Notes: generated by a model from the sequence alone, not told the origin. A stretch of 64,000 nucleotides of DNA from Escherichia coli (GCF_044324875.1 NZ_CP172185.1), one strand, 5' to 3'; shown: positions 20,042 to 55,396, counted from the first letter of the stretch. Numbers and translations are program-made.

Positions 20042-21091
20042 TCAGTCTGTTAGTGTGCGATTATCGATAACAAAACGATATTTCACATCTCCTCGCAGCA
20101 TTCGCTCATAGGCTTCATTAATTTGATCGGCCCGAATCATCTCTATATCAGCCACGATGCCATGTTCGGCGCAAAAATCGAGCATCTCCTGTGTTTCTGG
20201 AATGCCGCCAATCATAGAGCCGGCTATCGCGCGGCGTTTCATGATCAGGTTGAAAACTTCCGGCGATTTATGCGGTGTCGCAGGCGCACCAACCAGCGTC
20301 ATGGTGCCATCGCGCTTCAGCAAGGTGGTAAAATCGTCGAGATTATGTGGCGCAGCTACTGTATTCAAAATGAAATCGAAACTCTTCAGATGAGCCGCCA
20401 TCTCATCGGCATTGCGTGAGTTAACAACTTCATCGGCCCCCAGGGCTTTTGCCGCTTCGCGTTTTGCCTCAGAAGTGGTAAATGCCACCACATGTGCCCC
20501 CATCGCGTGGGCCAGCTTAATCCCCATATGTCCCAGACCGCCGATGCCAACCACGCCCACTTTTTTACCCGGCCCGGCCTGCCAGTGACGTAGCGGCGAG
20601 TATGTGGTGATCCCTGCACACAATAAAGGAGCCACCGCCGCCAGCTGCTCTTGCGGGTGACGAATACGCAGAACATATCGCTCATGAACGACGATCTGTT
20701 GTGAGTAGCCGCCCAGCGTATGGCCCGGTTCGTCCGGCGTCGGCGAGTTATAGGTGCCGGTCATGTGATCACAGTAGTTTTCCAGCCCGTCTTCACACTC
20801 TTCGCAATGTTTACAACTGTCGACAATACAGCCGACACCGACCAGATCGCCCGTCGCATGTTTTTCTACCTGATCACCAACGGCTACCACACGCCCCACA
20901 ATTTCATGACCCGGCACGCAGGGGTAAACCGTCCCCGCCCACTCGGAACGGACCTGGTGGATATCGGAATGGCAGACGCCACAGTAAGCGATTTCAATTT
21001 TGACATCATGCGGTCCCGGTTCACGCCTGGTAATATCCATCGGTTCCAGCGGTTGCGTCGCGGAATAAGCACCAATAGCCTTGATATTCAT
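20042..21091 (-). CDS. yahK: NADPH-dependent aldehyde reductase (zinc alcohol dehydrogenase family), 349 aa (start MNIKAIGAYS)
   Basis: GHEIVG and CGVCHSD zinc-ADH motifs; recognised as YahK. Confidence 0.9.
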   Translation of the reverse strand: MNIKAIGAYSATQPLEPMDITRREPGPHDVKIEIAYCGVCHSDIHQVRSEWAGTVYPCVPGHEIVGRVVAVGDQVEKHATGDLVGVGCIVDSCKHCEECEDGLENYCDHMTGTYNSPTPDEPGHTLGGYSQQIVVHERYVLRIRHPQEQLAAVAPLLCAGITTYSPLRHWQAGPGKKVGVVGIGGLGHMGIKLAHAMGAHVVAFTTSEAKREAAKALGADEVVNSRNADEMAAHLKSFDFILNTVAAPHNLDDFTTLLKRDGTMTLVGAPATPHKSPEVFNLIMKRRAIAGSMIGGIPETQEMLDFCAEHGIVADIEMIRADQINEAYERMLRGDVKYRFVIDNRTLTD

Positions 21092-21362
21092 TGCATTCAC
21101 TCCTGTTCGAAGAGGTATCTGGATGATGTGAGGAACGTCTTTGCAGCAAAACTCGCTCATTCAATATAGCCAATGAATGGTTGCCCGTGATGGGCTCTGA
21201 GACGTTGATACCGGAGAGTTTAATGACCAATAGTGGTGTCGTTTTTCGTGGCAGATCACACTTTCTGGCACCAGCGATATCCCTTTTCCGCCTTAAAACC
21301 GGGGCGGTATCGTGACTGGCGAATTAGACTGCCGTGAAATTCAATTATTACGCACACGCCGT

Positions 21363-22010
21363 TTACCCCGCAAAAGAAACACGCAATAACTTTAACTGCC
21401 CGTTAATCATGCCAAATTCCAGTATAGTTGTGCCATCACAAACAGCCGGTGGAATTTGTTCATTAGCCTGCGAACCAATATTCAGCGTAATGCCATCGTC
21501 AGAAATATTCCCCGACATCGCCAGTTCACATATTCCCGTGACGTAGTGGCGCTCCCCTTTCTCTTCGTAATAGAAACGTCCATCATTGAGGGGATAATAT
21601 TTTCTTTTTTGCTCCGCTGGCGTCAGCGAATGACTGAGATAATCATCAATCCATTGGGTACCCGGATGTATCGTGAATTTTGTGACATTATGCAGACGCC
21701 GCATAATGGTTTCTGAATGGCGATCAAATAGTGCTTCTGTGAAGGGTTCAGATTCAGGCAACTCAATCTCAGCGAGAAAGCCGAAATAGGTATCGTAGGG
21801 GAATTTTAAGAAGGTTTTTAGTTTCGTGGCATTCTTTGCACTCAGCGCTTGCTGAAACTTTTGCAATTGCGTTAAGGCATCTTTTTTCTGCTCCGGCGTG
21901 ACCAGGGGCTGTATGCGCACCGCCTCGCATTCGTGTTGTGAATTTCCAGCAGGGCAAGTTGCCAGGACGGCCTGACTCAGAAACAACAGCGATAACCAAA
22001 GAAATTTCAC
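21363..22010 (-). CDS. hypothetical secreted protein, 215 aa, with N-terminal signal peptide
   Basis: ORF with signal peptide MKFLWLSLLFLSQAVLA and GGA-rich RBS region; not recognised as a named K-12 protein. Confidence 0.5.
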   Translation of the reverse strand: MKFLWLSLLFLSQAVLATCPAGNSQHECEAVRIQPLVTPEQKKDALTQLQKFQQALSAKNATKLKTFLKFPYDTYFGFLAEIELPESEPFTEALFDRHSETIMRRLHNVTKFTIHPGTQWIDDYLSHSLTPAEQKRKYYPLNDGRFYYEEKGERHYVTGICELAMSGNISDDGITLNIGSQANEQIPPAVCDGTTILEFGMINGQLKLLRVSFAG

Positions 22011-22129
22011 GGCGTCTATCCATCCCTGGATAAAAAAGATAATCCGCAGTGTACGTCATGGGCAAAACGCAGAGGATATCGGGTTTTAAAATCGGAATAG
22101 TGCCTGCCCGGATATCCTCGCTGATAACG

Positions 22130-23508
22130 TTACACCACACTCCCCCACACCAGTTGTCCTTTATGGAACGTTGCCGTTCTCGGCGAGATACGCGCCACCG
22201 CCTCGGCGGAACAGGAGGCGTCCACCAGCACAAAACTGGCGTCATCCTGCGCTTTGGGCCACACGCGCTCGCCTTTTTCATTCAGCGGCAATACATCGCC
22301 AGTGGCTAAAAACAGCGAACGGGACAAATTCTGTTCGTTAGGGCGAATATAGAGCTGCGCGTACAGATTGGCTTTTTCCAGCATGTCGCCCAGGCCATAA
22401 GGTGACCAGTGGTCAATAACGCTGTCAGTTCCGGTCATGACTTTTACGCCTTTGTCGTGCAACTGTTTGAGCGGCATATGCAGCGTGCCAATCGGCACCG
22501 TCGAGGCGATAGAAATTTGCTGCGCCGCCATCCGGTGCGCCAGTTCATCTACCTGTTGTTCGTTGAGCGTTGCCAACGCAAAGGCGTGACTGATGGTCAG
22601 CTTGCCCTTCAGCTGTGGCGTTTTCTCTACCGTTTCAACCATATAATTGATGGCTGCCACACCTGCCGGAGTGGTTTCGTGCAGGTGAATATCGACGCCT
22701 TTGTCGTAGTCCAGCGCAATCTGAAACATGGTGTCGAGGGATTTTTCCATCGCGCCATCAACACTGGTTGGGTCCAGCCCGCCGACGTAATGCGCGCCCG
22801 CCTGCATCGCTTCACGCATTAAGGGTTCTGATTTCGACAGCAGCAAACCGTGCTGCGGGAAGGCGACGATTTCACACTCGAAGCCCGCCTGACGTCGCGC
22901 CAGCACCGCCTGCAAATTTTGCAGATTTTTCAGGCCGGAAACCGGTTCGATATTGCAGTGGCTGCGGGCAATGGTGGTGCCTTTCGACTGCAATAAATCG
23001 ATCAGTTTTTCCGCTCGTTCCTGAGTGTACGGTTGCAGCTCCGGCAGCATTTTCTGCTCGAGTTTGATCATGTCCTGGATGGTGGTCCTGCCGGGCGATT
23101 GAGCGAGCGCCACGGCCCGCCGTAAAAGGTTTTGTCGAGATGAATATGCATGTCGCGGGTGGTGGGCAGCATCAGCTTACCGCCAGCGTCATAGTGCGGC
23201 AGCGTGGCGTCCGGATGCTGCTTGTTCTCGCGCAGGGCAACAATTTTGCCGTTCTGAATCTCTACGGTCTGGTGCGCCGTGCGGGTCTGTACCGCCACAC
23301 CGTTTTCGTAGTCAAAACCGGTTTCCAGCAGCACGTTGTCGAGATAGTAGTGCGGGTCAGTGATTTTCATGGTGTTATTCGCGTCGCAGTTTAGGGTGCC
23401 AGAGACTGCCGCATGGGCGAGCGGCACAGAGGTACCAAACAGCGCGGCGGCGGTGACCATCTTACAGCTCTGGCTCAGAAACTCACGGCGGCTATTGTTT
23501 TTTTTCAT
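22130..23508 (-). pseudogene. yahJ: Tat-signal amidohydrolase/deaminase split by a frameshift into 146-aa and 327-aa ORFs overlapping at 23068-23113
   Basis: N-fragment has SRREFL twin-arginine motif and HxH metal site; C-fragment continues the amidohydrolase fold in another frame; combined length about 460 aa. Confidence 0.75.
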
Positions 23509-23517
23509 CTTACGTCC

Positions 23518-24468
23518 TTACGTTTTAATAATATGTGTGCCTGTTTCACCGCGCAGCGCCGCAGGCAGGCATTCCGGCGTGGTGATAATCACTTCTTTGC
23601 CGCCCTGCTCCAGGAACGTCAGGCTGGCGATGATTTTTGGCAACATGCTGCCAGGCGGGAAATGCCCTTCCTGCATATAGCGGGTCATGGTGGCAATATC
23701 CACCCGATCCAGCGCCTGCTGCTGCGGCTTGCCAAAGTGAATACACACTTTTTCGACGCCGGTGGTGATCACCAGAATGTCGGCGTGAATTTCACGGGCC
23801 AATAGCGCGGTAGAGAGATCTTTGTCGATAACCGCGTCCACGCTTTGGTAATCCCCCGCTTCACTGCACACCACCGGAATTCCACCGCCGCCCGCGCCAA
23901 TCACCACAAAACCTTGTTGGATCAGCGCCTTAATGGCAGGTGCTTCGACAATACGTTTCGGTTCCGGCGAGGCGACCACGCGGCGATAGCCCCGTCCGGC
24001 ATCTTCAACAAAACGCCAGTCAGGGTTTGCCTTTTGTAATTCGTCACGCTGGCTTTCACTGAAGAATGCGCCGATGGGCTTGGTGGGATGAGCAAATCCC
24101 GGATCGTTTTTATCCACTTCCACCTGAGTCACCACGGTGACGGCTTTTTTCTCGCCGTGACGCGCCAGTCGGTTATTCAGCGCCTGTTGGATCAGGTAGC
24201 CGATGCCACCTTGCGTATCCGCCACACAGTTCGCCAGCGGCGTTAAGGGCAGCCCTTCGCGCTCGTGGGCAATCTCCGCACGGCGTAAATCCAGCCCGAC
24301 CTGCGGCCCGTTGCCGTGGGTCAGCACAATGTCGTAATCGGAAGCCAGCATTTCCAGCACCGTATCGGCGACGGCCTTCACCGCCTCCGCCTGATGCTCA
24401 ATCGACTGGCTGGCGTTATCTTTGATAATGCTGTTGCCACCAATGGCAACGACCACAAGTTCTTTCAT
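23518..24468 (-). CDS. yahI: carbamate kinase-like protein, 316 aa
   Basis: Amino-acid kinase fold (VVAIGGN..., THGNGPQVG) recognised as YahI. Confidence 0.9.
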   Translation of the reverse strand: MKELVVVAIGGNSIIKDNASQSIEHQAEAVKAVADTVLEMLASDYDIVLTHGNGPQVGLDLRRAEIAHEREGLPLTPLANCVADTQGGIGYLIQQALNNRLARHGEKKAVTVVTQVEVDKNDPGFAHPTKPIGAFFSESQRDELQKANPDWRFVEDAGRGYRRVVASPEPKRIVEAPAIKALIQQGFVVIGAGGGGIPVVCSEAGDYQSVDAVIDKDLSTALLAREIHADILVITTGVEKVCIHFGKPQQQALDRVDIATMTRYMQEGHFPPGSMLPKIIASLTFLEQGGKEVIITTPECLPAALRGETGTHIIKT

Positions 24469-24518
24469 GTTGTTATGTCCGCTACAGAGGGTGATGGGGT
24501 TATGACCAACGCCAGACT

Positions 24519-24700
24519 GCCTGATGCGCTACGCTTATCAGGCCTAGAATTCTCGTGCCATTCGTAGGCCGGATAAGGCGTTCACGCCGCATCCGGCAAT
24601 GGTGACAAATGCCTGATGCGCTACGCTTATCAGGCCTACAGATTCTCGCGCCACTCGTAGGCCGGATAAGGCGTTCACGCCGCATCCGGCAGAGACAACG
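24519..24700. repeat. BIME with four REP palindromes between yahG and yahI
   Basis: Two copies of gcctgatgcgctacgcttatcaggcctac...gtaggccggataaggcgttcacgccgcatccggca. Confidence 0.8.
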
Positions 24701-24713
24701 CGCACTTTGCAGG

Positions 24714-26132
24714 TCAGACGCCGTAACGTTCGCACCAGCCAAGAATGGCTTTCTCGAAGCAGGCGAATGGTGGATGCACAATGCCCGCGCCAATCATGCC
24801 GACGCCCGCATCTTTATGGGCGATGGCGGTGTTGATCACCGGCAGAATGCCGCTACTGCCCACGCGGGTTATGTCGATTGCCGACGGCACGCCCATAAAA
24901 CCGAGCAGCGGAATGGTGACGTTGGGATTTTCGCCGAGAGTGATTTCGCGCATCTGGCGGGAGAAATCGATGGCCTCTTCCACCGTACCGCCCACCAGCG
25001 CGACGATTGCAGGCGCGGTCGCCATAGCAAATCCACCAATGCCGTAGGTTTCGGTGATGGCGCTGTCGCCAATATCCAACCCAGAATCTTCCGGCTTATA
25101 ACCGGCAAACATCGGGCCGATGACCTGCTGCGCCGGACCGGTAAACCATTGCCCCGGTAATCCGCTGACCCGCAGGCCGAACTCGACGCCGTTACGCGCC
25201 ATGGTGGTCACCACAGTGCTGTATTCGATGCCGTGCGCCGCATCCATCGCCGCTTTACACATCGCCATCCACGTCGGGCCGGAGAAGTAGTCACTGCTGG
25301 CGACAAACTCAAACACTTCGCGCTGTTGCTCGACGGAGTAGCCCGCCTGAATAATCCCCGGCGTCAGCGCCTGAATCAGCAGCGTCGTCCCGGCGTTATT
25401 GCGGTTATGGCACTCATCGCCCATATGCAGCGCCTGCGCCAGCATTAAGCGCAGATCGATCTCGCCGATAATTTTCATCGCATCGCGCAGCATTGGCCCC
25501 TGCACATCACGCATCCAGTTGAGTCGGTCGATCACGCTCTGGTCGTTAGCGCCCATACGCAAAATCTTTGCCATCTGCTCGCTCATATTGGTGTAAGCGA
25601 TGTTGCCGTAGGTTTTGTTTTTCACGATGTGCATAAACATCGAGGCCGAGGTAACACCCGCCATCGATCCCACGCAGTCATGTTCGTGGCACGGCGAGAA
25701 GGTGATCTCCCCGGAGGCCGCCAGTTCAGCCGCCTCATCGAGATCTTTCGCCAGCCCTTCGAACACCAGCGCTCCGGTGACCGCGCCTTTCATCGCGCCA
25801 CACATTTTTTCCCAGGTGATCGGCGGTCCGGCGTGAAGAATGGTTTTCGGCGTCATACCCGGCACCACGTTAATCGCCTGATCAAAACCAATCAGCACCG
25901 GATGCGACTGGATAATGCGCTCCAAAGCCTGCTGGTTAGCGGCGGCGATTTTGTCTGCCAGCGGCGAATCGGCAATGTTATCCAGCGCCTGCACCACCTG
26001 CATATTGCCCTGCCCCGGCGGCGTCCAGTCGAGTTGAGTCACTTCTACATGCTGCTTTTTCAGGTCATCGCTAAACATGGCGATGCCGACGTTAATAACG
26101 TTCAACGGTTGGCTAAACAGTGACTGGCTCAT
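24714..26132 (-). CDS. yahG: DUF1116 protein, 472 aa (YlbE paralog)
   Basis: Recognised as YahG. Confidence 0.88.
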   Translation of the reverse strand: MSQSLFSQPLNVINVGIAMFSDDLKKQHVEVTQLDWTPPGQGNMQVVQALDNIADSPLADKIAAANQQALERIIQSHPVLIGFDQAINVVPGMTPKTILHAGPPITWEKMCGAMKGAVTGALVFEGLAKDLDEAAELAASGEITFSPCHEHDCVGSMAGVTSASMFMHIVKNKTYGNIAYTNMSEQMAKILRMGANDQSVIDRLNWMRDVQGPMLRDAMKIIGEIDLRLMLAQALHMGDECHNRNNAGTTLLIQALTPGIIQAGYSVEQQREVFEFVASSDYFSGPTWMAMCKAAMDAAHGIEYSTVVTTMARNGVEFGLRVSGLPGQWFTGPAQQVIGPMFAGYKPEDSGLDIGDSAITETYGIGGFAMATAPAIVALVGGTVEEAIDFSRQMREITLGENPNVTIPLLGFMGVPSAIDITRVGSSGILPVINTAIAHKDAGVGMIGAGIVHPPFACFEKAILGWCERYGV

Positions 26133-27679
26133 CAGGCTTCCTCCCCTTTGCAGATAAATTCACGCGCCAGCAATCCGGTATTGGTGCTGCTGCTTGCCAG
26201 AATTACCCCAGCATCAAGCAGCATCTGGCTTTGTTGTTCTAATGATGGCGTATCAAGATCGGTACCCAGCACATAGGCGAGAATGATCAACTCACGTCCT
26301 TCGGCAGCGGCGATCGCTTTCGCTTCTTTGATCGCATCGATGGTGGAGCCGACCGGATCTTCATGCGATCCAAATCCGAGCACAAAATCCATCACGATCA
26401 CCGCCACTTCTGGATCGCGCGCTTCTTCGATCAAGCGACTGATGCGGTTGGTCGGGTCAATCATTGGATGCGGCTTGCCGTTGGTGAAGTCGTCATCACC
26501 AAAGTCGAGGAAGGTGTGTTTGATGCTGCGGCTGATATCTTGCAGGCGGAATTCCGGATCGGGCTGAATGTTGCTGTAGACATCGCCGTGTTTTTCCATC
26601 ACCGCGAACATCGTTTCGTCGCACAGCGTGCCGCCGCAGAACAGGCCACGAATGTATTTCTGTTGCGGTTGCAGGCGAGCGCGCACGTCAGCAATCAATG
26701 GCTGGTTCAGGGTATGCAGGTCGAGATGTTCTTGTTTCACACCGGAGAGCATCACCGCTTTTAGTGCCGCCTCTTTGGTGCCGCGAGCAAACTGTAGCCC
26801 CTGCTCATCCACTGGCGTTTCGCCACGACCGAGGAAGCAGACTACCACTGGCTTACGGCAGGCGCGTGCGCGTTCCAGCACTTTGCGGGCCACCGCAGGC
26901 GCTGGCGGTTTGGAGATAAGCACAATGATTTCAGTTTGCGGATCGTTTTCCAGCATCCCGATGGCGTCGAGCATCATCAGGCCGCCGATTTTCTCGCTCA
27001 GGTCGCGCCCGCCGGTGCCGATCAGTTGCGAAACGCCGCCGCCAAATTCATGAATGCGGACGCTCAGCTCCTGGCTGCCGGTGCCGGATGCGCCAACAAT
27101 ACCGATGTTGCCGCGACGCACGGCGTTACCAAAGCAGAGCGCCGCGCCGTTGATAATCGCCGTACCGCAGTCTGGCCCCATCATCAGCAGCCCTTTTTCG
27201 TGGGCCAACTGTTTGAGCGCCAGTTCATCTTCAACTGAGACGTTATCGGAAAACAGCATCACTTTAAGATCGTTTTGCAGCGCCTGACGCGCTTCGCGAG
27301 CGGCAAACAGACCGTTGACCGAAATCACCGCCAGGTTACTTTCCGGGATATGCTTTTTGGCGCTGGCAATAGTGGCATAGCGTGCTTCATGTGAACCAGT
27401 TTGAGCTTTGGTGTTGAACAGTTCTTCAATCTCCACCAGCAACTGCTCGTTGTCCGCACCCGATTTACCATTGATGACAATCATCAGGTCACCGTTTTTC
27501 GCCTGCTCCAGTTCCGGCGTCAGCAGTCCTAAATTCTTCAGCACACCTTTGTTCATTTCGGTCGCCATCGCCACAAATGCCTGCTCGACGCCGTCGAGTT
27601 TATTTGCACGCGTGGAGATAGACATCAGCGAGACAGAATCAAAATAGGTATTCGGTTTAATGACTATTTTAACTGACAT
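26132..27679 (-). CDS. yahF: FdrA-like CoA-binding / succinyl-CoA-synthetase-like protein, 515 aa
   Basis: Recognised as YahF. Confidence 0.88.
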   Translation of the reverse strand: MSVKIVIKPNTYFDSVSLMSISTRANKLDGVEQAFVAMATEMNKGVLKNLGLLTPELEQAKNGDLMIVINGKSGADNEQLLVEIEELFNTKAQTGSHEARYATIASAKKHIPESNLAVISVNGLFAAREARQALQNDLKVMLFSDNVSVEDELALKQLAHEKGLLMMGPDCGTAIINGAALCFGNAVRRGNIGIVGASGTGSQELSVRIHEFGGGVSQLIGTGGRDLSEKIGGLMMLDAIGMLENDPQTEIIVLISKPPAPAVARKVLERARACRKPVVVCFLGRGETPVDEQGLQFARGTKEAALKAVMLSGVKQEHLDLHTLNQPLIADVRARLQPQQKYIRGLFCGGTLCDETMFAVMEKHGDVYSNIQPDPEFRLQDISRSIKHTFLDFGDDDFTNGKPHPMIDPTNRISRLIEEARDPEVAVIVMDFVLGFGSHEDPVGSTIDAIKEAKAIAAAEGRELIILAYVLGTDLDTPSLEQQSQMLLDAGVILASSSTNTGLLAREFICKGEEA

Positions 27680-28160
27680 AATTCCCTCCGTAGGTTTGGC
27701 TCAGCGCACAACCATCGGCCATGCCATACAGCATGTCGCAGCCGGAACTGGAGCCAATATGTTTAATTTTTTCTATTGCCTGGGTTGAATTCCCAGGGAC
27801 ACCATAAATAATATCGTGAATAAAATGATGAATATTTTCCCGGCAGCGTTGTTGTAATGCGGCTTCCAGCGTTATGGCACTTAATAACGTGGTATTATTT
27901 CTGCCGCGTTGCAGACCGATATAAAATTCCTCTTTGTATTTTTCCGCCGGATGTCCGGAAATAAATAAAATAAGCGCCAGACCTGTTAAATAATCATCGG
28001 CTGATGGCGTAAGGCCAATCCCTAACCCCATCATACTGGCGACCGCTAAGGCGATATTTTTTTTATCGTTTACTTCCTGAATAACTGCCCGTCGTTTAAT
28101 ATGTAATTCTTTATTTAACGCCTGATAAAACGGATTATCGCCGCGATAATTAAACAGGGT
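27669..28160 (-). pseudogene. yahE: C-terminal 164 codons of DUF2877 protein yahE; 5' part replaced by IS1
   Basis: Own translation shows the frame open from the IS1 junction (28160) down to the stop at 27669, with no start codon upstream of the junction. Confidence 0.75.
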
Positions 28161-28175
28161 GGTAATGACTCCAAC

Positions 28176-28679
28176 TTATTGATAGTGTTTTATGTTCAGA
28201 TAATGCCCGATGACTTTGTCATGCAGCTCCACCGATTTTGAGAACGACAGCGACTTCCGTCCCAGCCGTGCCAGGTGCTGCCTCAGATTCAGGTTATGCC
28301 GCTCAATTCGCTGCGTATATCGCTTGCTGATTACGTGCAGCTTTCCCTTCAGGCGGGATTCATACAGTGGCCAGCCATCCGTCATCCATATCACCACGTC
28401 AAAGGGTGACAGCAGGCTCATAAGACGCCCCAGCGTCGCCATAGTGCGTTCACCGAATACGTGCGCAACAACCGTCTTCCGGAGCCTGTCATACGCGTAA
28501 AACAGCCAGCGCTGGCGCGATTTAGCCCCGACATAGCCCCACTGTTCGTCCATTTCCGCGCAGACGATGACGTCACTGCCCGGCTGTATGCGCGAGGTTA
28601 CCGACTGCGGCCTGAGTTTTTTAAGTGACGTAAAATCGTGTTGAGGCCAACGCCCATAATGCGGGCAGTTGCCCGGCAT
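28176..28679 (-). CDS. insB: IS1 InsB reading frame (expressed as InsAB' by -1 frameshift)
   Basis: Recognised InsB sequence. Confidence 0.9.
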
Positions 28680-28873
28680 CCAACGCCATTCATGGCCATA
28701 TCAATGATTTTCTGGTGCGTACCGGGTTGAGAAGCGGTGTAAGTGAACTGCAGTTGCCATGTTTTACGGCAGTGAGAGCAGAGATAGCGCTGATGTCCGG
28801 CGGTGCTTTTGCCGTTACGCACCACCCCGTCAGTAGCTGAACAGGAGGGACAGCTGATAGAAACAGAAGCCAC
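28598..28873 (-). CDS. insA: IS1 InsA, 91 aa, GTG start
   Basis: Recognised InsA ([42 protein letters not shown]...). Confidence 0.93.
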
Positions 28874-28928
28874 TGGAGCACCTCAAAAACACCATCATAC
28901 ACTAAATCAGTAAGTTGGCAGCATCACC

Positions 28929-29270
28929 AGAGATTTACCAACTGCTGAAGCGGAAATATCTCGCGTGCAGGCGTCTATTATCAAATGGTATGCGTCAGAA
29001 TACCATAATGGCAGGCAAGTTCTCGATGAGATACAAACGCCTTCAGCAATTAACAGTGAGCTTTATACAAAAATGATATATCTGACCAGGAACTGGTCAT
29101 TGTATCCGAACGGTGATGGCTGTGTAACTATAAGCTCACCAGAAATAAAAAATAAATACCCTGCTGCCATTTGCCTGGCTCTGGGATTTTTTCTAAGCTT
29201 TGTAATTTCTGTAATGTTTTGCCTTGTCAAAAAAATGGTAGATGAATACCAACAAAACTCTGGGCAGTAA
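28929..29270 (+). pseudogene. 3' remnant of a gene truncated by IS1, possibly ykgH
   Basis: Open frame runs from the IS1 junction to stop at 29270 with a C-terminal hydrophobic segment; ykgH assignment is from expected synteny only. Confidence 0.35.
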
Positions 29271-29512
29271 TAAACAGCATTCTGATAGAGAGTGCCTGTA
29301 TAAAGCTGAAGTGACAATGACCGGGAAGGGAACCCGTTTTCAGGAATGGATGCCTGTCTTTTTCACTGTAAATATCCTGGCATTACTAATGCCAGGATAT
29401 TTACAGAAGAGCAGCATAACCATGACGGAACGGGGTTAAGTCAGGTTGTCCTTAACGCTATTCACAACCTCGTATGCCGACTTCAGGTTTATGTCCAGAC
29501 TTCATATCTCTC

Positions 29513-30208
29513 TCAGCAATCCTCAATAATCAGATACACCGCTTTCACCGGGCCATGAACCCCGACGACTTTGATAAGCTCAATATCCGCCGTTGAACTA
29601 GGGCCGCTAATGATGTTAATGCAGGACGGCATTCGTTCACCGGCCTGCGCTTTCTGATGCAATTTTTCTGCGAGTTGCGCTACACGCGGCAGGATTGTGC
29701 TTTTACGCAGGATAAAAAGAGAAGATTCCGGGAGCAGGCTCAATGAACGCCCGCGCCCGGCGGCGGAAAAAAGAACCACGCCTCCCGATTCGGTTAAACC
29801 ATATTCAGCATACACGACACCCACTTTAGCCTGCTCTGCTTGTGATATGTTCTCAATACCTTTCGCCGGATCCCAAACAACGGCATTGCATTCCTGCTGC
29901 AAACGTTCGCTAATCCCCAATTCCTCCAGCCTCGTGTCACCGCTAATCACGACCGACTGATCTCCCAGCTCTTTACACAGACGTATTGCAGCTTCTGCCG
30001 CCTTCGCCTCGCTGGTCAGTTCACAGCGCGTCAACATAACATCGCTGGCAAACTGAATAAACGCGTCACAACGCTGCTGTTGGGTAAGTTGGGTAAGCCG
30101 CTCGTTAGCATAGTTGTTAAGCGGCGCATCTTCTGCTTGCGGTTCAAGTCGCAGCGGGCGACCCAGTGCCTGAGCAACGTTATTCAAAAATTCGCTCCGA
30201 TTATCCAT
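29513..30208 (-). CDS. ykgG: LutC-family lactate utilisation protein, 231 aa (start MDNRSEFLNN)
   Basis: Recognised as YkgG; start overlaps ykgF stop by 8 bp. Confidence 0.88.
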   Translation of the reverse strand: MDNRSEFLNNVAQALGRPLRLEPQAEDAPLNNYANERLTQLTQQQRCDAFIQFASDVMLTRCELTSEAKAAEAAIRLCKELGDQSVVISGDTRLEELGISERLQQECNAVVWDPAKGIENISQAEQAKVGVVYAEYGLTESGGVVLFSAAGRGRSLSLLPESSLFILRKSTILPRVAQLAEKLHQKAQAGERMPSCINIISGPSSTADIELIKVVGVHGPVKAVYLIIEDC

Positions 30209-31628
30209 TCTTTTTCTCCTGCGCCTGATGTTTCTTAAACCAACTACGGAAACTCTCTCCGTCAGCTTCAGGAAGATCGCGTGCTTCCATCCAGTCGCTA
30301 ATCGCGCCAAATTTGAGTGGTGTTTTGCCGCCATTGATAAACCAGCTTGCCGCATGAGCACCAGCCATCATCCCGACTTTCCACAATCCTGGATGACTAT
30401 TGGCATAAGCGAACATTTTTATCGCCCGTTGCTCTGCTTTTGCGGTGATCCCTTTTTCAGCCATCACCCGACGATGACGCAAAATCAGTTTTGACAGCGG
30501 AATACGCACCGGACACACGCTGTCACAAGCGGTGCATAAAGAGCAGGCGTAGGGTAAATCTTTAAAATCTTTATAGCCGCCAAGTAGCGGAGAAATCACC
30601 GCACCAATTGGCCCTGGATAAATAGAGCCATATCCATGACCGCCAATATGGCGATATGCCGGACAAGTATTCATACAAGCCCCGCAGCGAATACAGCGCA
30701 GCACATCCCGAAATTCAGAGGCCAGCACCTCAGAACGCCCGTTATCGACAATAACCAGATGAAACTCTTCAGGACCATCAACGTGCCCCGCTTCGCGCGG
30801 TCCTGTCAGCCAGGTGTTGTATCCCGTCAAACGTGCACCAACGGCACTGCGCGCCAGCATGGTGATCAATACATCTACCTCGGCAAACGTGGGGGCAATA
30901 CGCTCCATTCCCATCACTGCAATATGCGTTTTAGGCAGCGTGGTACACATTCGCGCATTACCTTCATTGGTCACCAGGCATACCGAACCGGTCTCTGCCA
31001 CCGCGAAATTACAGCCGGTAATACCTATTTCAGCACTGAGGAAATCTTCGCGGATTTTTTGCCGGATGAATAAGGTCATTGCTTCAGGCGTTTCCGACCC
31101 CTCATAGCCCAGACGTTCGTGTAGCACCCGACGGATCTGATGGCGATCTTTATGAATTGCCGGGACCACAACATGAGAGGGCGGATCTTGATCCAGCTGG
31201 AGAATGTATTCACCCAGATCGGTTTCAATCACCTGAATGCCAGCATCCTGCAACACATGATTGACACCAATCTCTTCGGTCACCATCGATTTAGATTTCA
31301 CCACCTTCCGGGCATTTTTGCGTTGGGCAACCTGTAAAATGTAGCGAGTGGCGTCTTCTTTAGTTTTTGCAAAATAGACGTGACCGCCGTTTTGCGTCAC
31401 TTTTTCTGAGAGCTGGTACAGATAAGCGTCGAGATTACTCAGAACATGATCACGTATCTGGGCGGCCCGATCGCGCCACTCCTCCCAGTGCCCCAATTCA
31501 TCGACCATTTTTTGCCGATTTGCCCCGATACGCTGCTGCGCGTTTGCCACCGCTTTGCGCATGATCGGATCTTCAATTTGCTGACGGATGCGTGTCTTAA
31601 AATCTGTATTACTGGTTTTGATCGACAT
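30201..31628 (-). CDS. ykgF: LutB-family iron-sulfur protein, 475 aa
   Basis: Two CxxCxxCxxxCP ferredoxin motifs; recognised as YkgF. Confidence 0.92.
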   Translation of the reverse strand: MSIKTSNTDFKTRIRQQIEDPIMRKAVANAQQRIGANRQKMVDELGHWEEWRDRAAQIRDHVLSNLDAYLYQLSEKVTQNGGHVYFAKTKEDATRYILQVAQRKNARKVVKSKSMVTEEIGVNHVLQDAGIQVIETDLGEYILQLDQDPPSHVVVPAIHKDRHQIRRVLHERLGYEGSETPEAMTLFIRQKIREDFLSAEIGITGCNFAVAETGSVCLVTNEGNARMCTTLPKTHIAVMGMERIAPTFAEVDVLITMLARSAVGARLTGYNTWLTGPREAGHVDGPEEFHLVIVDNGRSEVLASEFRDVLRCIRCGACMNTCPAYRHIGGHGYGSIYPGPIGAVISPLLGGYKDFKDLPYACSLCTACDSVCPVRIPLSKLILRHRRVMAEKGITAKAEQRAIKMFAYANSHPGLWKVGMMAGAHAASWFINGGKTPLKFGAISDWMEARDLPEADGESFRSWFKKHQAQEKKNG

Positions 31629-31638
31629 CTTTATATCC

Positions 31639-32358
31639 TCAGCGGCTCATCAGCACTTCAGCAATATGCATTACTTTGACTTTCTGCCCTTCCCGTTGTA
31701 ATCGCCCACTGATGTTCAGCAGGCAACTCACGTCAGCACCAATTAAATACTCAGGGCGGACTTCCATCAGGTGCGCAACCTTTTCTTTCACCATCTCGCC
31801 GGATATTTCGGCCATTTTGACCGAGAACGTGCCGCCAAATCCGCAGCAGGTATCCTGTTCAGCAAAGGTCAACAGCTCCAGTCCACGCACATTTTTCAGC
31901 AGCATAAGTGGCTCGTCCTTCCCCCCCAGCTTACGGGCCAGGCTACAAGATGGGTGATACACCGCTCTCCCTTGCAAACTGGCACCTACATCGACTACCC
32001 CTAATGTATTAACAATAAAAGAGGTGAGATCCTGCATACGCGCGGCAACCTTTTCGGCACGTGATGCCCATTCAGGCTCATCCGCCAGATACGTTGGGTA
32101 ACTTTTTACGGCATAGGTACAGGAGCCAGCCGGTGAAATAATGGGATCGTCGTTATCCTCCAGTGCGGCGATCAGATTTTTCATCCCTGGAATCGCTTCT
32201 TTGATATAACCACTATTGATCGCAGGCTGACCGCAGCATCCCTGTTTCTCCGGGAAATTTACGCGACAGCCGAGTTTTTCCAGTAGCAGCACGGAGTCTC
32301 GTGCCATTCTTGATTTCAGGGCGTCACCAATACAGGTGACAAAGAAATTGACATTCAC
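31639..32358 (-). CDS. ykgE: LutA-family cysteine-rich (CCG) protein, 239 aa
   Basis: Recognised as YkgE. Confidence 0.92.
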   Translation of the reverse strand: MNVNFFVTCIGDALKSRMARDSVLLLEKLGCRVNFPEKQGCCGQPAINSGYIKEAIPGMKNLIAALEDNDDPIISPAGSCTYAVKSYPTYLADEPEWASRAEKVAARMQDLTSFIVNTLGVVDVGASLQGRAVYHPSCSLARKLGGKDEPLMLLKNVRGLELLTFAEQDTCCGFGGTFSVKMAEISGEMVKEKVAHLMEVRPEYLIGADVSCLLNISGRLQREGQKVKVMHIAEVLMSR

Positions 32359-32875
32359 AACTAATACTCCATTACTTCATGCCCATTTATGCCCGATGGT
32401 TCCCCCCTTCCGGGGGATCAATCATCAATAAATATGGCGTTCTTTTTTAATTGGCTAGCAACATACCACCCCTCATTTGTATGACAAATGATAATCTTTG
32501 ATCCAAACTTCAAATGCAATAACTAATTTTATTTCTTTCGGCATCGCTCACATTTTATAGGGAAATCGACGATCATTTTTGGCATAAGAAATCCATTTAA
32601 AAAGGCTACATCCCTTATACCTATTCAGTGCTACTTATTCAGGGGTTATTGAGATATACACTGATGGTGTACAAACAAAATCACCAACAATAATTACGTA
32701 TCAAGTAATAATCGGCATTTTATTTAATTGAAGCAATTTAGTTTGTATCTTTTATTTAATTACTAAGCCAGACCACTTCAAAAAAATATATAAAAAACTT
32801 GGAAATAGAAATAGTTGAAAGGCTCACAACTCCCGGAATGCGGATTATCTTTGCCCTGATTTCTGGCGGTTTTAT

Positions 32876-33730
32876 TCAGGGTGCAAGCTGTCTGACCCTT
32901 TCCCGATATTCTCCCGGGGTACAACCAAACTCGCGAACAAACGCCTTGTGAAAAGATGATTCACTGGCATAGCCTACTGACTCAGCGATCACCACAACAG
33001 GGAGCGTTTCCCGGGAAAACATCTGGGCCGCTATTTGTAGACGCAACTTTGTTAATACAGCCAGCGGCGTGGTTCCGGAAACATCACGGAAAAGCTGGGC
33101 AAAACTTGCCCGGGACATGTGGGCGATGCTGGCCAGCGATTCGACGGTCCAGGCGTGTCCTGGCATTTCCAGCATTTGCTGTATTACCGCACCAAGACGT
33201 GGATGCAGAAGCAAACTGAGAATGTTTTTCTCTGTATTAACCTGTGCAATCCACTCACGCACCGCGAGGATAAAGAATGTAGCGCAGATCTGGCTACACA
33301 GTGCATCCACTCCCGGCATTGCCGATCTGGATTCCTGTTGTAAAAACGGGATCGCCTCCCTCAGCCAGTTATATTCCACGCTATGGTTCACTGGTGCTAC
33401 AAACAGCGTTTCCGGCAAAGACGTTAAAAAATAACGCGCCGAATGTTGCAGCCGAAGAGTGCCACAGACAATATAGGTCGATTCATTATCGACATGACTC
33501 AGGCGATGAGCTGAATTTTGTGGTAGCAGGACCACATTTCCCGGGCGTAATGTAAAAATCTCTCCCGTCGGCATTTCCAGCTTCGCCGCTCCTTGCGTTA
33601 ACGCATGCCAACGAATAACCGACAATTCCCCGGCACCATGTGGAAGTTGCCAGTCACTTCCTAACACGCAATTCTTATCGATCGTTCCTTGTGGAGCGTT
33701 AAGCATCAACAAACGGCTAAGAGCATCCAT
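32876..33730 (-). CDS. rclR: AraC-family reactive-chlorine-responsive regulator, 284 aa (start MDALSRLLML)
   Basis: AraC HTH C-terminus; divergent from rclA. Confidence 0.88.
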   Translation of the reverse strand: MDALSRLLMLNAPQGTIDKNCVLGSDWQLPHGAGELSVIRWHALTQGAAKLEMPTGEIFTLRPGNVVLLPQNSAHRLSHVDNESTYIVCGTLRLQHSARYFLTSLPETLFVAPVNHSVEYNWLREAIPFLQQESRSAMPGVDALCSQICATFFILAVREWIAQVNTEKNILSLLLHPRLGAVIQQMLEMPGHAWTVESLASIAHMSRASFAQLFRDVSGTTPLAVLTKLRLQIAAQMFSRETLPVVVIAESVGYASESSFHKAFVREFGCTPGEYRERVRQLAP

Positions 33731-33956
33731 ATCAGACTCCTGAGTGGTTTTTTGATTACAAACACCAACAATCTTAGTCAATAATTAATCTAATACCATC
33801 AAATAGTTAATCATGATTTTTGTTTTGTGATTCTGATTAAGAAAAAGAAAATACCAGACGATAAGACAAAATATCAAGCGTTGTGAAGAAATGTTATTTG
33901 CTCTTTTGCGTCTATAGTCATGATGTCAAATGAACGCGTTTCGACAGGAAATCATC

Positions 33957-35282
33957 ATGAATAAATATCAGGCAGTTATTATTGGTTTTGGCAAGGCTGG
34001 AAAAACATTAGCCGTCACGCTGGCAAAAGCAGGTTGGCGTGTGGCTCTCATCGAACAATCAAATGCAATGTATGGCGGGACCTGTATTAATATCGGCTGC
34101 ATCCCAACCAAAACATTGGTTCATGACGCACAGCAGCACACAGATTTTGTCCGTGCCATACAGCGTAAAAATGAAGTGGTTAATTTTTTACGTAATAAGA
34201 ATTTTCATAATCTTGCGGATATGCCCAATATCGACGTGATCGACGGCCAGGCGGAGTTTATCAATAATCATAGCCTGCGTGTTCATCGGCCTGAGGGAAA
34301 TCTGGAAATTCATGGCGAGAAAATTTTTATTAATACCGGTGCACAAACCGTGGTTCCGCCAATTCCTGGAATTACCACCACGCCAGGAGTATATGACAGC
34401 ACCGGATTACTTAATCTAAAAGAATTGCCTGGGCATTTAGGTATTTTGGGCGGCGGATATATTGGCGTTGAGTTCGCCTCTATGTTCGCTAATTTTGGCA
34501 GCAAGGTAACCATTTTAGAAGCAGCTTCGCTGTTTTTGCCTCGGGAAGATCGGGATATTGCTGATAATATCGCGACGATTTTACGCGATCAGGGCGTCGA
34601 TATAATCCTCAATGCCCATGTGGAGCGAATCAGTCACCATGAAAATCAAGTGCAAGTGCATAGCGAGCACGCCCAACTGGCGGTGGATGCACTGTTAATA
34701 GCTTCCGGTCGTCAACCGGCTACCGCTTCGTTACATCCAGAAAATGCCGGTATCGCAGTAAACGAGCGCGGGGCAATTGTCGTTGACAAGCTATTACATA
34801 CCACCGCAGACAATATTTGGGCGATGGGAGATGTTACCGGCGGGCTGCAATTTACTTATATTTCACTGGATGATTACCGCATTGTGCGTGATGAGTTGCT
34901 GGGAGAAGGCAGACGTAGTACTGATGATCGGAAAAATGTGCCTTATTCCGTATTCATGACACCGCCACTGTCCCGGGTTGGTATGACAGAAGAACAGGCC
35001 AGAGAGAGTGGTGCTGATATTCAGGTGGTGACATTGCCTGTAGCTGCAATTCCGCGTGCCAGAGTGATGAACGATACCCGTGGGGTATTAAAAGCGATTG
35101 TTGATAATAAAACCCAACGTATATTAGGGGCATCACTGCTGTGTGTTGACTCCCACGAGATGATCAATATAGTGAAAATGGTGATGGATGCCGGGCTGCC
35201 TTATAGCATATTACGCGATCAGATATTTACTCATCCGTCGATGAGCGAATCACTCAATGATCTATTTTCATTAGTCAAATAA
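33957..35282 (+). CDS. rclA: pyridine nucleotide-disulfide oxidoreductase, 441 aa (start MNKYQAVIIG)
   Basis: GGTCINIGCIPTK redox-active disulfide motif; recognised as RclA. Confidence 0.9.
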   Translation: MNKYQAVIIGFGKAGKTLAVTLAKAGWRVALIEQSNAMYGGTCINIGCIPTKTLVHDAQQHTDFVRAIQRKNEVVNFLRNKNFHNLADMPNIDVIDGQAEFINNHSLRVHRPEGNLEIHGEKIFINTGAQTVVPPIPGITTTPGVYDSTGLLNLKELPGHLGILGGGYIGVEFASMFANFGSKVTILEAASLFLPREDRDIADNIATILRDQGVDIILNAHVERISHHENQVQVHSEHAQLAVDALLIASGRQPATASLHPENAGIAVNERGAIVVDKLLHTTADNIWAMGDVTGGLQFTYISLDDYRIVRDELLGEGRRSTDDRKNVPYSVFMTPPLSRVGMTEEQARESGADIQVVTLPVAAIPRARVMNDTRGVLKAIVDNKTQRILGASLLCVDSHEMINIVKMVMDAGLPYSILRDQIFTHPSMSESLNDLFSLVK

Positions 35283-35390
35283 ACTCAAAATCAGACGCCA
35301 GAACAAATATTCTGGCGTCTCAGAGAAAAGAATCTTATTAATTCCCTGTTACTTTATAACTTCTTAATCACTTCATTGATGGTATTTTAT

Positions 35391-35627
35391 ATGTTTAAAA
35401 AATCTGTTTTATTTGCAACACTATTATCTGGCGTTATGGCATTTTCCACCAATGCAGATGATAAAATAATTCTGAAACATATCAGCGTCTCGTCAGTATC
35501 AGCATCACCGACAGTTCTTGAGGATGCCATTGCTGATATAGCCAGAAAATATAATGCTTCATCCTGGAAAGTCACATCGATGCGAATTGATAATAATTCA
35601 ACCGCAACAGCAGTATTGTATAAATAA
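35391..35627 (+). CDS. rclB: small periplasmic protein, 78 aa
   Basis: Signal peptide; position between rclA and rclC. Confidence 0.8.
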   Translation: MFKKSVLFATLLSGVMAFSTNADDKIILKHISVSSVSASPTVLEDAIADIARKYNASSWKVTSMRIDNNSTATAVLYK

Positions 35628-35638
35628 GGATGTTCACA

Positions 35639-50024: not shown

Positions 50025-50945
50025 ATGAAAACTGTTTCGATAAAACATACTTACTGGGATATAGCTGCTGATATCTATTTCCCTGACGATTTTAATAGTG
50101 AAAAAAAGTATCCTGCCATTATCAGCGCCCATCCAATTGGAAGCTGCAAAGAACAGACATCGGGTAGTGTGTATGGTGCCGCCCTGGCAAAAGCTGGCTT
50201 TATCGTCATTGCTTTTGATGCCAGTTTTCAGGGAAGCAGCGGTGGAGAACCGCGTTATCTGGAAGATCCAACAATGCGAGTAAAAGACTTCAGCATTGTC
50301 GTTGATTACCTTACCACCTTACCTTACGTTGATGCCGGGCGTATTGGTGTACTGGGTATTTGTGGTGGAGGTGGATATGCCATTAATGCCGCAATGACAG
50401 AACGTCGAATTAAAGCTATTGGTACTGTCACGGGTGCAAACTACGGGCGTCTTATGCGTGAGGGATTTACAGCGTTTAATCCTATCGGAGCACTCGAAGC
50501 GATGGCGCAACAAAGAACAGACGAAGCTAACGGCGCAAAACTTCGCGTAGATGATTTACTCCCCTCTTCTCCGGATGCAGCTCTTGAAGCGGGATTAACA
50601 GAAATAGACCTTTTTGAAGCCACAGAATATTATCGTTCGCCACGAGGCTGTGCACCTAATGGGGTAAATCGTTCGCTATTCTCACATCAGACTGTTGCCG
50701 TGGGTTGGGATGCATTTCATCTTGCAGAAGTCCTGTTAACTCAACCAATAATGGTTGTGGTGGGCGATAGAGTGGGCGCATTTGGTGCCTACCGTGACGG
50801 CTGCGAAATTATTGGCCGCGCTGCCTCAAAACATAAAGAGCTGGTCGTGGTTGAAGGTTATTCACATTACGACCTGTATGATAAGCCAGAACCTGTGAAA
50901 CAGGCACTCGAAAAATTAATTCCTTTTTATAAAACACATTTGTAA
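50025..50945 (+). CDS. alpha/beta hydrolase (dienelactone-hydrolase-like), 306 aa
   Basis: GICGGGG nucleophile-elbow-like motif. Confidence 0.8.
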   Translation: MKTVSIKHTYWDIAADIYFPDDFNSEKKYPAIISAHPIGSCKEQTSGSVYGAALAKAGFIVIAFDASFQGSSGGEPRYLEDPTMRVKDFSIVVDYLTTLPYVDAGRIGVLGICGGGGYAINAAMTERRIKAIGTVTGANYGRLMREGFTAFNPIGALEAMAQQRTDEANGAKLRVDDLLPSSPDAALEAGLTEIDLFEATEYYRSPRGCAPNGVNRSLFSHQTVAVGWDAFHLAEVLLTQPIMVVVGDRVGAFGAYRDGCEIIGRAASKHKELVVVEGYSHYDLYDKPEPVKQALEKLIPFYKTHL

Positions 50946-51117
50946 TAATCTTACAGGGAGATTCCTTATCTCCCTGACATTTATCCTTTATTGACTACAC
51001 AACAATAATAAAATTACTCAAAAAGAATTCTATTAAAGGAAAAAAGCATCAAAAAGTAGCAACTCAACTTATTAAGATTATACGCATTAAAATCAGATAA
51101 ACATTTGAGGTATTGTT

Positions 51118-53684: not shown

Positions 53685-54172
53685 CTGAGGATGTATCTTC
53701 CTGTTCATTTAAGGTCAACTGCCTGACGTTTCTCTCCGAATATTCCATTATATTAATGTTGACTTGTTGACCAGGTGCGCCCTGTATGCTGGCATCAACT
53801 CTCTTTTAGACTGAACACGCCACTCAGTTTCCTCCCTTTGCGACGCAGCCTGCATTTACACTCAAACGGTTAAGATGATAAATGTGGTAAATCTGTTGGT
53901 ACTGACATAAAAACGTTTACGCCACAGGAACGGCCTGATCCACCGGTAACCCCATCGCCGACGTTCGAGTGCCAGTTAGAGTAACGCGCACAGATGACTG
54001 AATGCAGTGCCCTGGCAAAGAGGCCATCGTTCCTGTGACAACTGGCAGTCTTCGTTTAACTTCACTTAATTTGGCTCTTAGGGGGCTTACCGGACAGATG
54101 ACGTACTTACACCTGTTTAATTTTTCATCACTTATTGGGATGAACACCCATAACCATGGTAATGACTCCAAC

Positions 54173-54676
54173 TTATTGATAGTGTTTTATGTTCAGATAA
54201 TGCCCGATGACTTTGTCATGCAGCTCCACCGATTTTGAGAACGACAGCGACTTCCGTCCCAGCCGTGCCAGGTGCTGCCTCAGATTCAGGTTATGCCGCT
54301 CAATTCGCTGCGTATATCGCTTGCTGATTACGTGCAGCTTTCCCTTCAGGCGGGATTCATACAGTGGCCAGCCATCCGTCATCCATATCACCACGTCAAA
54401 GGGTGACAGCAGGCTCATAAGACGCCCCAGCGTCGCCATAGTGCGTTCACCGAATACGTGCGCAACAACCGTCTTCCGGAGCCTGTCATACGCGTAAAAC
54501 AGCCAGCGCTGGCGCGATTTAGCCCCGACATAGCCCCACTGTTCGTCCATTTCCGCGCAGACGATGACGTCACTGCCCGGCTGTATGCGCGAGGTTACCG
54601 ACTGCGGCCTGAGTTTTTTAAGTGACGTAAAATCGTGTTGAGGCCAACGCCCATAATGCGGGCAGTTGCCCGGCAT
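54173..54676 (-). CDS. insB: IS1 InsB reading frame
   Basis: Identical to first copy. Confidence 0.9.
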
Positions 54677-54870
54677 CCAACGCCATTCATGGCCATATCA
54701 ATGATTTTCTGGTGCGTACCGGGTTGAGAAGCGGTGTAAGTGAACTGCAGTTGCCATGTTTTACGGCAGTGAGAGCAGAGATAGCGCTGATGTCCGGCGG
54801 TGCTTTTGCCGTTACGCACCACCCCGTCAGTAGCTGAACAGGAGGGACAGCTGATAGAAACAGAAGCCAC
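54595..54870 (-). CDS. insA: IS1 InsA
   Basis: Identical to first copy. Confidence 0.93.
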
Positions 54871-55396
54871 TGGAGCACCTCAAAAACACCATCATACACT
54901 AAATCAGTAAGTTGGCAGCATCACCCATGAACACCCATAACCATTTTGTGCGGCATGTTAATCCATTAAAACACCTTACTGATTGGCAAATCATCTTTAA
55001 TTATGACTCATGATAGTTTTATATTCTATTTATTATCATTTAAACTTGTTTTTTTACTAGTCCATTACACAACACATTAAGACTATTCCTAACACCTCAG
55101 GGCAAAGTTCCTGGCTAATATAAAATGCAAGTAAGAATTGAACGTTATATTGCCAATAACCTTATGAAACTGAATGTCTTTTTCTTCTTATCAAAAAAGC
55201 AATATTTTCATTTTTTGTAAATATTGACTTAACCATGGAATTCCTTTTCTGTTCACATATTGACACTCATCAGGAAAAAAACATAAATTTAAACCTAATC
55301 GAAATAATTAAAACTTAATCTCGTTTAACCTATATTGATATGTGCTACGTATCTTATTTACTTCCGATTTACTAAAGAAACTGAATGTACCTGTAA

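Follow-up and report, generated by a model that had tools for sequence, protein, structure and literature searches.

When a copy of IS1 stands between fragments of two different genes, has the element simply inserted there, or does it mark the place where a piece of the chromosome was lost? This question is raised by a locus of Escherichia coli (GCF_044324875.1, NZ_CP172185.1), which we analysed within a stretch of 64,000 nucleotides, hereafter called the window. A preliminary description of this DNA had interpreted the IS1 as the joint of a deletion rather than as a simple insertion. The range which it assigned to the joint, positions 27669–29512, brackets a gene remnant, the IS1 and a second gene remnant, and extends from the stop codon of yahE to the base before the stop codon of ykgG. 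The coordinates of the individual features are given in Table 1.

Table 1. Features at and around the IS1 joint, and the second IS1 copy of the window.
Feature	Position	Strand	Description
yahF (fdrA-like acyl-CoA synthetase)	26132..27679	-	Intact, 515 aa; nearest complete gene on the left side
yahE 3′ remnant	27669..28160	-	Codons 125-287 and stop codon; codons 1-124 and upstream sequence lost
Left flanking 9-mer AAACAGGGT	28152..28160	.	Same junction in other public samples
IS1	28161..28928	-	768 bp; IRR-type end at 28161, IRL-type end at 28928; intact
insB	28176-28679	-	Frame open, InsB 167 aa
insA	28598-28873	-	Frame open, InsA 91 aa
Right flanking 9-mer AGAGATTTA	28929..28937	.	Same junction in another public sample
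ykgH 3′ remnant	28929..29270	+	Codons 110-222 and stop codon
ykgG	29513..30208	-	Intact, 231 aa; nearest complete gene on the right side
Second IS1	54158..54925	-	Simple insertion, flanked by a target duplication

The element at the joint is a bona fide IS1 by every sequence criterion tested. Both termini show 0 mismatches to the imperfect terminal inverted repeats of IS1 (GGTGATGCTGCCAAC... and GGTAATGACTCCAAC...); the IRR-type end begins with GGTAATGACTCCAAC... and the IRL-type end finishes with ...GTTGGCAGCATCACC. In addition to the two open reading frames, the coding strand contains the A6C programmed-frameshift motif TTAAAAAACTC. Over the 768 bp, the element differs from IS1C of K-12 at 9 positions and from RefSeq copies annotated as 'IS1A family' at 2–4 positions.

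The joint IS1 lacks a target-site duplication (TSD) of any plausible length. The flanking 9-mers had been described as different, and they are exactly AAACAGGGT on the left and AGAGATTTA on the right, two unrelated sequences. A direct repeat of 8–10 bp immediately next to the element was looked for on both sides and none was found. Nor do the two 20-bp flanks have any repeat of at least 4 bp in common, so there is no microhomology at the joint.

Both flanks were then aligned to the genome of K-12 MG1655 using blastn. The window is colinear with K-12 from position 363343 down to 302754, in reverse orientation. The left flank ends at K-12 position 336297, inside yahE (335925–336788; 95.5% identity), and the right flank starts at position 325037, inside ykgH (324696–325364; 98.1% identity). 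The alignment thus leaves a gap of 11,259 bp, K-12 positions 325038–336296, which are missing from the window, while the flanks keep the relative orientation that they have in K-12. A tblastn search of K-12 proteins against the window gave matches to residues 117–287 of YahE and 110–222 of YkgH; the last 8 aligned codons of the YahE match are a spurious read-through into IS1. The left flank is therefore the interior of yahE, as had been proposed, and the 3′ gene remnant that precedes ykgG on the right could be assigned to ykgH.

The missing interval comprises the 5′ part of ykgH, betA, betB, betI, betT, yahV, pdeL, yahB, yahC, yahD and the 5′ part of yahE. All genes that the preliminary description had listed as missing are correct; the only omissions are yahV, which is a small ORF, and the lost 5′ portion of yahE. 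Searches with K-12 proteins (tblastn) found no match to BetA, BetB, BetI, BetT, PdeL, YahC or YahD within the 64-kb window, and the absence of the four Bet proteins bears out the claim that betaine synthesis from choline was removed. A YahB orthologue is absent as well; the weak matches of 30–41% identity in the window are to LysR-family genes at ~48.2–49.8 kb. Other genes of the window, including lacY, lacA, cyn, cod, prp and ecp, are intact as judged by tblastn of the K-12 proteins. Their intactness, together with a count of just three IS elements in the 64 kb, led us to reject a Shigella origin, which had been suspected since the best match to any complete E. coli genome was 99.4%. Separately, yahJ is frameshifted both in the source lineage and in its relatives, which indicates that the yah gene cluster was already decaying.

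We also compared the locus with a near-identical relative. A protein identical to the YahF of the window sits in an intact bet–yah context in GCA_050232825.1, and this exact match located its contig ABYWRS010000002.1. Compared with window positions 20132–28160, the contig shows 0 mismatches over 8,029 bp and then, past the left junction, runs on into the rest of yahE, yahD, yahC, yahB, pdeL and betT. On the other side, the piece reached via the EaeH protein of the window differs from positions 28929–45492 by 3 mismatches over 16,564 bp, and its ykgH is intact. The two junction points lie 11,260 bp apart in ABYWRS010000002.1, where the interval occupies positions 404385–415644; there is no IS1 at this place and the whole interval is present. 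The identical YahF and EaeH alleles (213 and 229 index blocks) are carried by some 200 or more public assemblies. Because the interval is intact in a near-identical relative, its loss is derived and recent. The sequences that flank the IS1 are thus separated by ~11.26 kb in K-12 as well as in the near-identical relative, and this separation, together with the lack of a TSD, confirms that the IS1 is not a simple insertion.

Next, we surveyed other genomes for the same joint. yahE and ykgG are not naturally adjacent: of 5,426 complete E. coli genomes, 5,039 contain at least 80% of the K-12 interval and 162 had no match to it at all, and the closest relative contains the interval too. The joint, or either junction alone, was found in none of these 5,426 genomes. 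The source lineage is not among them, the best match reaching 99.4% identity on yahE–yahF. The left-junction query was covered by 12 genomes, as two pieces 126 bp apart that represent a different IS1 site in yahE. The right-junction query was covered by GTEN_97 only, in which an IS1 lies 7 bp away in ykgH with a normal TSD, TACCAACTG.

Assemblies outside the complete genomes do contain the two junctions. The left half-joint is present with 100% identity at a contig end of GCA_958308375.1, together with 127 bp of IS1, and again with 100% identity in a Logan contig common to SRR8502383 and nine other samples, together with 27 bp of IS1. The right half-joint opens a 21.3-kb Logan contig of ERR1512459, where 27 bp of IS1 are followed by AGAGATTTACC...; this contig, which was reached via a nonsense mutation private to the source subclade, has 0 mismatches to the window over 16,591 bp. 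Both junctions are real and shared with other public samples, each seen singly, as the short-read contigs end inside IS1 and the linkage of the two halves is not visible per sample. An exact-pattern scan for the right junction gave 0 matches in species-representative genomes and JGI metagenomes. In look-ups, neither the 101-aa ORF of the ykgH remnant, entered with V as well as with M at its start, nor its 65-aa ORF was on record. Look-ups with YkgF, PdeL and YkgG returned unrelated lineages only, which is uninformative for such conserved proteins. The literature search found no paper on ykgH with IS1 and none on an IS1/betT deletion specific to this joint. What is new here is only the particular joint, which is in no complete genome surveyed and on which no paper was found.

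The window contains three IS elements only, one of them being a second IS1 ~25 kb from the joint. It is identical to the joint IS1 at 768 of 768 positions, has the same orientation and is missing from GCA_050232825.1. This copy arose by simple insertion: a separate target duplication surrounds it, and the sequences on its two sides adjoin each other in the relative. It was therefore not involved in the deletion and was rejected as a partner in the rearrangement. Its identity with the joint IS1, its fresh TSD and its absence from the relative show that IS1 was active on the same short time scale, and IS1 has thus been recently active in the source strain. Two new IS1 copies in 64 kb also show that the element inserts frequently in this strain. 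As the sole other visible copy is fully identical, a surviving IS1 that was a chimera of two copies would be unrecognizable.

How was the joint made? In our view the most likely route, with a somewhat better than even chance, is an IS1 insertion followed by a transposase-mediated adjacent deletion. IS1 would first have inserted in yahE or ykgH of an ancestor with the normal ykgH–betABIT–pdeL–yahBCDE order. The IS1 transposase (InsAB′) would then have linked one end of the element with another target site on the same chromosome, 11.26 kb away, an intramolecular replicative transposition that is classically called IS1-promoted adjacent deletion. The intervening DNA would have left as a non-replicating circle with a second IS1 copy and been lost, and one intact IS1 would have stayed behind, linking yahE from codon 125 onwards to ykgH from codon 110 onwards. 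The locus carries the hallmark of an adjacent deletion, namely one intact IS between flanks that are colinear in the ancestral orientation, with only the intervening DNA gone.

We favour this route because it takes the fewest events, one insertion and one intramolecular step, within a very short divergence time, because adjacent deletion is a classical, established activity of IS1, and because there is a natural precedent in the same region (SCEC020022 and YZMc10-2, see below). From these considerations we infer the order of events, the movement of one end, and transposase rather than homologous recombination as the maker of the joint; which end moved cannot be read from the end product. The preliminary description had regarded the joint as the signature of an IS1-mediated adjacent deletion. 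The IS1-joint structure fits this proposal, but the signature is not unique, as other IS1-dependent routes leave the same sequence. The reverse order, in which the deletion came first and IS1 inserted at the joint later, was rejected, as it would leave a TSD. A simple IS1 insertion at either junction, as expected of a precursor, was found in none of the 5,426 complete genomes. The predicted precursor fusions YahE(1-127)+GDAANLLI and YkgH(1-112)+GNDSNLLIV...HRF were not on record, a weak negative that presupposes a TSD of 9 bp as well as specific gene calls.

Adjacent deletion and recombination between identical ISs are both common causes of missing TSDs (PMC11708052), and homologous recombination between two IS1 copies yields the same end product, so that the sequence alone cannot separate the two. 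In the present case, two same-orientation insertions, in yahE (TSD AAACAGGGT) and in ykgH (TSD AGAGATTTA), would have been followed by homologous recombination between the 768-bp copies, excising 11.26 kb and one IS1. We consider this history possible but less probable than adjacent deletion. It predicts the exact product, one IS1 with two unrelated 9-mers, and recombination of this kind is a frequent cause of missing TSDs (PMC11708052). The frequent insertion of IS1 in this strain, where an identical copy in the same orientation (54158–54925) is absent from the relative, makes a history with two insertions less unlikely, and yahE and ykgH are repeated IS1 targets elsewhere, the ykgH insertion of GTEN_97 being 7 bp from the joint. 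However, three events, two insertions and a recombination, would have to fit within 0–3 substitutions per 8–16 kb, and no isolate with either or both insertions was found among the 5,426 complete genomes or by exact protein look-ups, which is a weak negative.

Alternatively, insertion and deletion could have occurred together in one step if a transposing IS1 joined its ends to two targets 11.26 kb apart, leaving no TSD and requiring no precursor. TSD-less IS movements with large rearrangements have been proposed for IS5 and IS481 (PMC11708052), and the fact that no precursor was found is consistent with such an event, although it is weak evidence. We nevertheless regard the one-step event as unlikely, since IS1 is not known to move in this way and 14 of 14 re-examined IS150 deletions were resolved into an insertion and then an adjacent deletion (PMC11708052). 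That nothing was lost at all, either because two IS1 copies were merged during assembly and the intervening DNA was left out or because the 11.26-kb segment moved elsewhere in the genome, is highly improbable: our view is confined to 64 kb and the short-read contigs of other samples stop inside IS1 with the flanks unlinked, but the window sequence runs directly across the IS1, the 64-kb window lacks any homologue of bet, pdeL, yahC or yahD, the fusion protein expected from a junction between the 5′ part of yahE and IS1 is not on record, and the flanks have the ancestral relative orientation that a deletion predicts.

The adjacent deletion that we favour would place the locus beside a number of described cases. 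It belongs to the IS-bounded deletions, a very well known class, and is a classical phenomenon, real but ordinary. IS1-promoted adjacent deletions were reportedly described by Reif and Saedler in 1975 in the gal region of E. coli K-12. Like our locus, the classical gal-region cases keep a single IS1 at the joint, with the DNA on one side removed and no target duplication spanning the element; here, in contrast, the deletion is in a natural isolate, and a fixed side with an anchored precursor insertion was not observed. In the IS150 adjacent deletions of the Lenski long-term lines, too, the joint holds an IS and lacks a TSD, but IS150 is an IS3-family element that transposes by copy-out-paste-in, and time series showed that the insertion came first and the adjacent deletion afterwards (PMC11708052).

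Comparable deletions were also found in the same region of other E. coli. In SCEC020022, IS1 has inserted simply into ykgH and is flanked by the TSD TGCCTTGTC. YZMc10-2 shares with SCEC020022 the IS1 variant and the right junction, with a right flank that is 99.97% identical, but its left junction lies upstream of yahD. YZMc10-2 is thus a one-ended deletion from an anchored IS1, and the two genomes form a clear precursor/product pair. YZMc10-2 resembles our locus in its region and IS1 orientation, in the loss of the bet–pdeL–yah segment and in having an IS1 without TSD; however, both junction positions differ, the lineage is unrelated, and a precursor is known there only. Two further types of TSD-less IS1 joint have one end in yahE and have lost the bet genes. 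In the yahE–IS1–ecpR deletion of 12 complete genomes (e.g., DA33133, YJ3 and NDM2), the end point lies 126 bp further into yahE and ~25 kb are removed, whereas in WP2-S18-ESBL-08 and MLI105 an 87-bp yahE stub is joined through IS1 to an intact ykgH. Both are independent of the event described here.

Simple IS1 insertions in ykgH, ykgG and yahE are also present in other E. coli. All IS1 copies retrieved in the region share one orientation, and as the search joins same-strand pieces only, it favours that orientation. The joints that we tallied are those of the source strain, of YZMc10-2, of WP2-S18-ESBL-08 and MLI105, and of the 12-genome yahE–IS1–ecpR group, in addition to the simple insertions in ykgH, ykgG and yahE. 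IS1 has thus struck or removed the ykgH–bet–pdeL–yahE segment on many independent occasions in E. coli, and we count at least five independent TSD-less joints in unrelated lineages. A reading to which we give a low probability is that the segment is a recurrent site of IS1-bounded loss with selection behind the recurrence. Should some niche favour the loss of betaine synthesis and/or pdeL, these events would represent convergent adaptive gene loss. The alternative to selection is a mere target preference, with a hot spot for IS1 in AT-rich DNA.

For genome annotation, the truncated yahE and ykgH are probably pseudogenes, so their fragments should be annotated as such, and the IS1 between them is not to be scored as a simple insertion. 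The joint also provides a clean clonal marker: none of the 5,426 complete genomes has it, and its halves occur in a few public read sets. With yahD and the region upstream of yahE gone, yahF–yahG–yahI would now be without their native upstream region. Transcription of IS1 itself runs toward yahF–yahG–yahI and might read through into them.

Judging from established gene functions, the deletion would have abolished choline uptake (betT) and the oxidation of choline to glycine betaine (betA and betB) along with the regulator betI. The c-di-GMP phosphodiesterase/regulator pdeL would be lost too, as would yahB, yahC and yahD. Uptake of ready-made glycine betaine by ProP and ProU should be unaffected. 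The predicted phenotype is therefore that choline would not serve as an osmoprotectant in the strain and its small subclade. IS1 is well known for its role in reductive genome change, and the locus is a further documented example, in a segment that has been hit repeatedly.

Comparison with other genomes places some changes in time relative to the first IS1, which joins the remnants of yahE and ykgH. The yahJ gene is split in two by a frameshift. As the same split is called in two relatives (L037 and L040), it is older than the deletion at the IS1 joint. In the ykgA homologue, a C-to-T nonsense change shortens the product from 285 aa, the full length in relatives, to 160 aa. This change was found in this subclade alone, including the public read sample ERR1512459. 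The IS21-family element, with an apparent 6-bp duplication (TAAAGC), is missing from both ERR1512459 and the near-identical genome GCA_050232825.1, and is therefore younger than the IS1 joint. It interrupts a LysR-family regulator gene.

Features of the region, in window coordinates
Feature	Position	Detail
yahJ, frameshifted	22136-23508	frameshift near 23086-23095
ykgA homologue, AraC/GyrI-like	37509-38366	mutation at 37989
eaeH, full-length	38487-42740	1,417 aa
Segment without K-12 counterpart	43291-52169	8.9 kb
IS21-family element	45493-48131	2,639 bp
IstB-like ORF	45592-46590	minus strand
IstA-like ORF	46364-48010	minus strand
Second IS1 with flanking repeats	54140-54944	element 54158-54925

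The eaeH gene is whole here, whereas in K-12 it is an IS3-disrupted pseudogene. The segment without K-12 counterpart encodes two aldo-keto reductases and two LysR regulators, along with a hydrolase and an FMN oxidoreductase.

The second IS1 lies between 18-bp direct repeats, ATGAACACCCATAACCAT, twice the usual 9-bp IS1 duplication, and one additional C (54926) separates its IRL end from the right-hand copy. K-12 (311811-311828) and the close relative GCA_050232825.1 hold this sequence once, and the latter lacks the insertion.

Many independent IS1 events were observed around ykgG-ykgH-yahE in other E. coli (L002, L003, L004, L005, L006, L028 and L029). Simple insertions show the target-site duplications TGCCTTGTC, TGGTAGATG, TACCAACTG and CGCGGCAGG. 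No such duplication flanks the IS1 that joins yahD to the 3′ end of ykgH (upstream of ykgG), nor the one in the joints yahE stub-IS1-ykgH and yahE-IS1-ecpR, the last in 12 genomes. L003 and L004 are a precursor/product pair. All IS1 copies at these loci share one orientation, which the search method favours.

Finally, the yahE-yahG side of the lost interval (24518-28160; 95.5% identity) is far more diverged from K-12 than the ykgH-rclC side (28929-36520; 98.1%), and their best complete-genome matches are different strains. This suggests that the two sides had different recombination histories.
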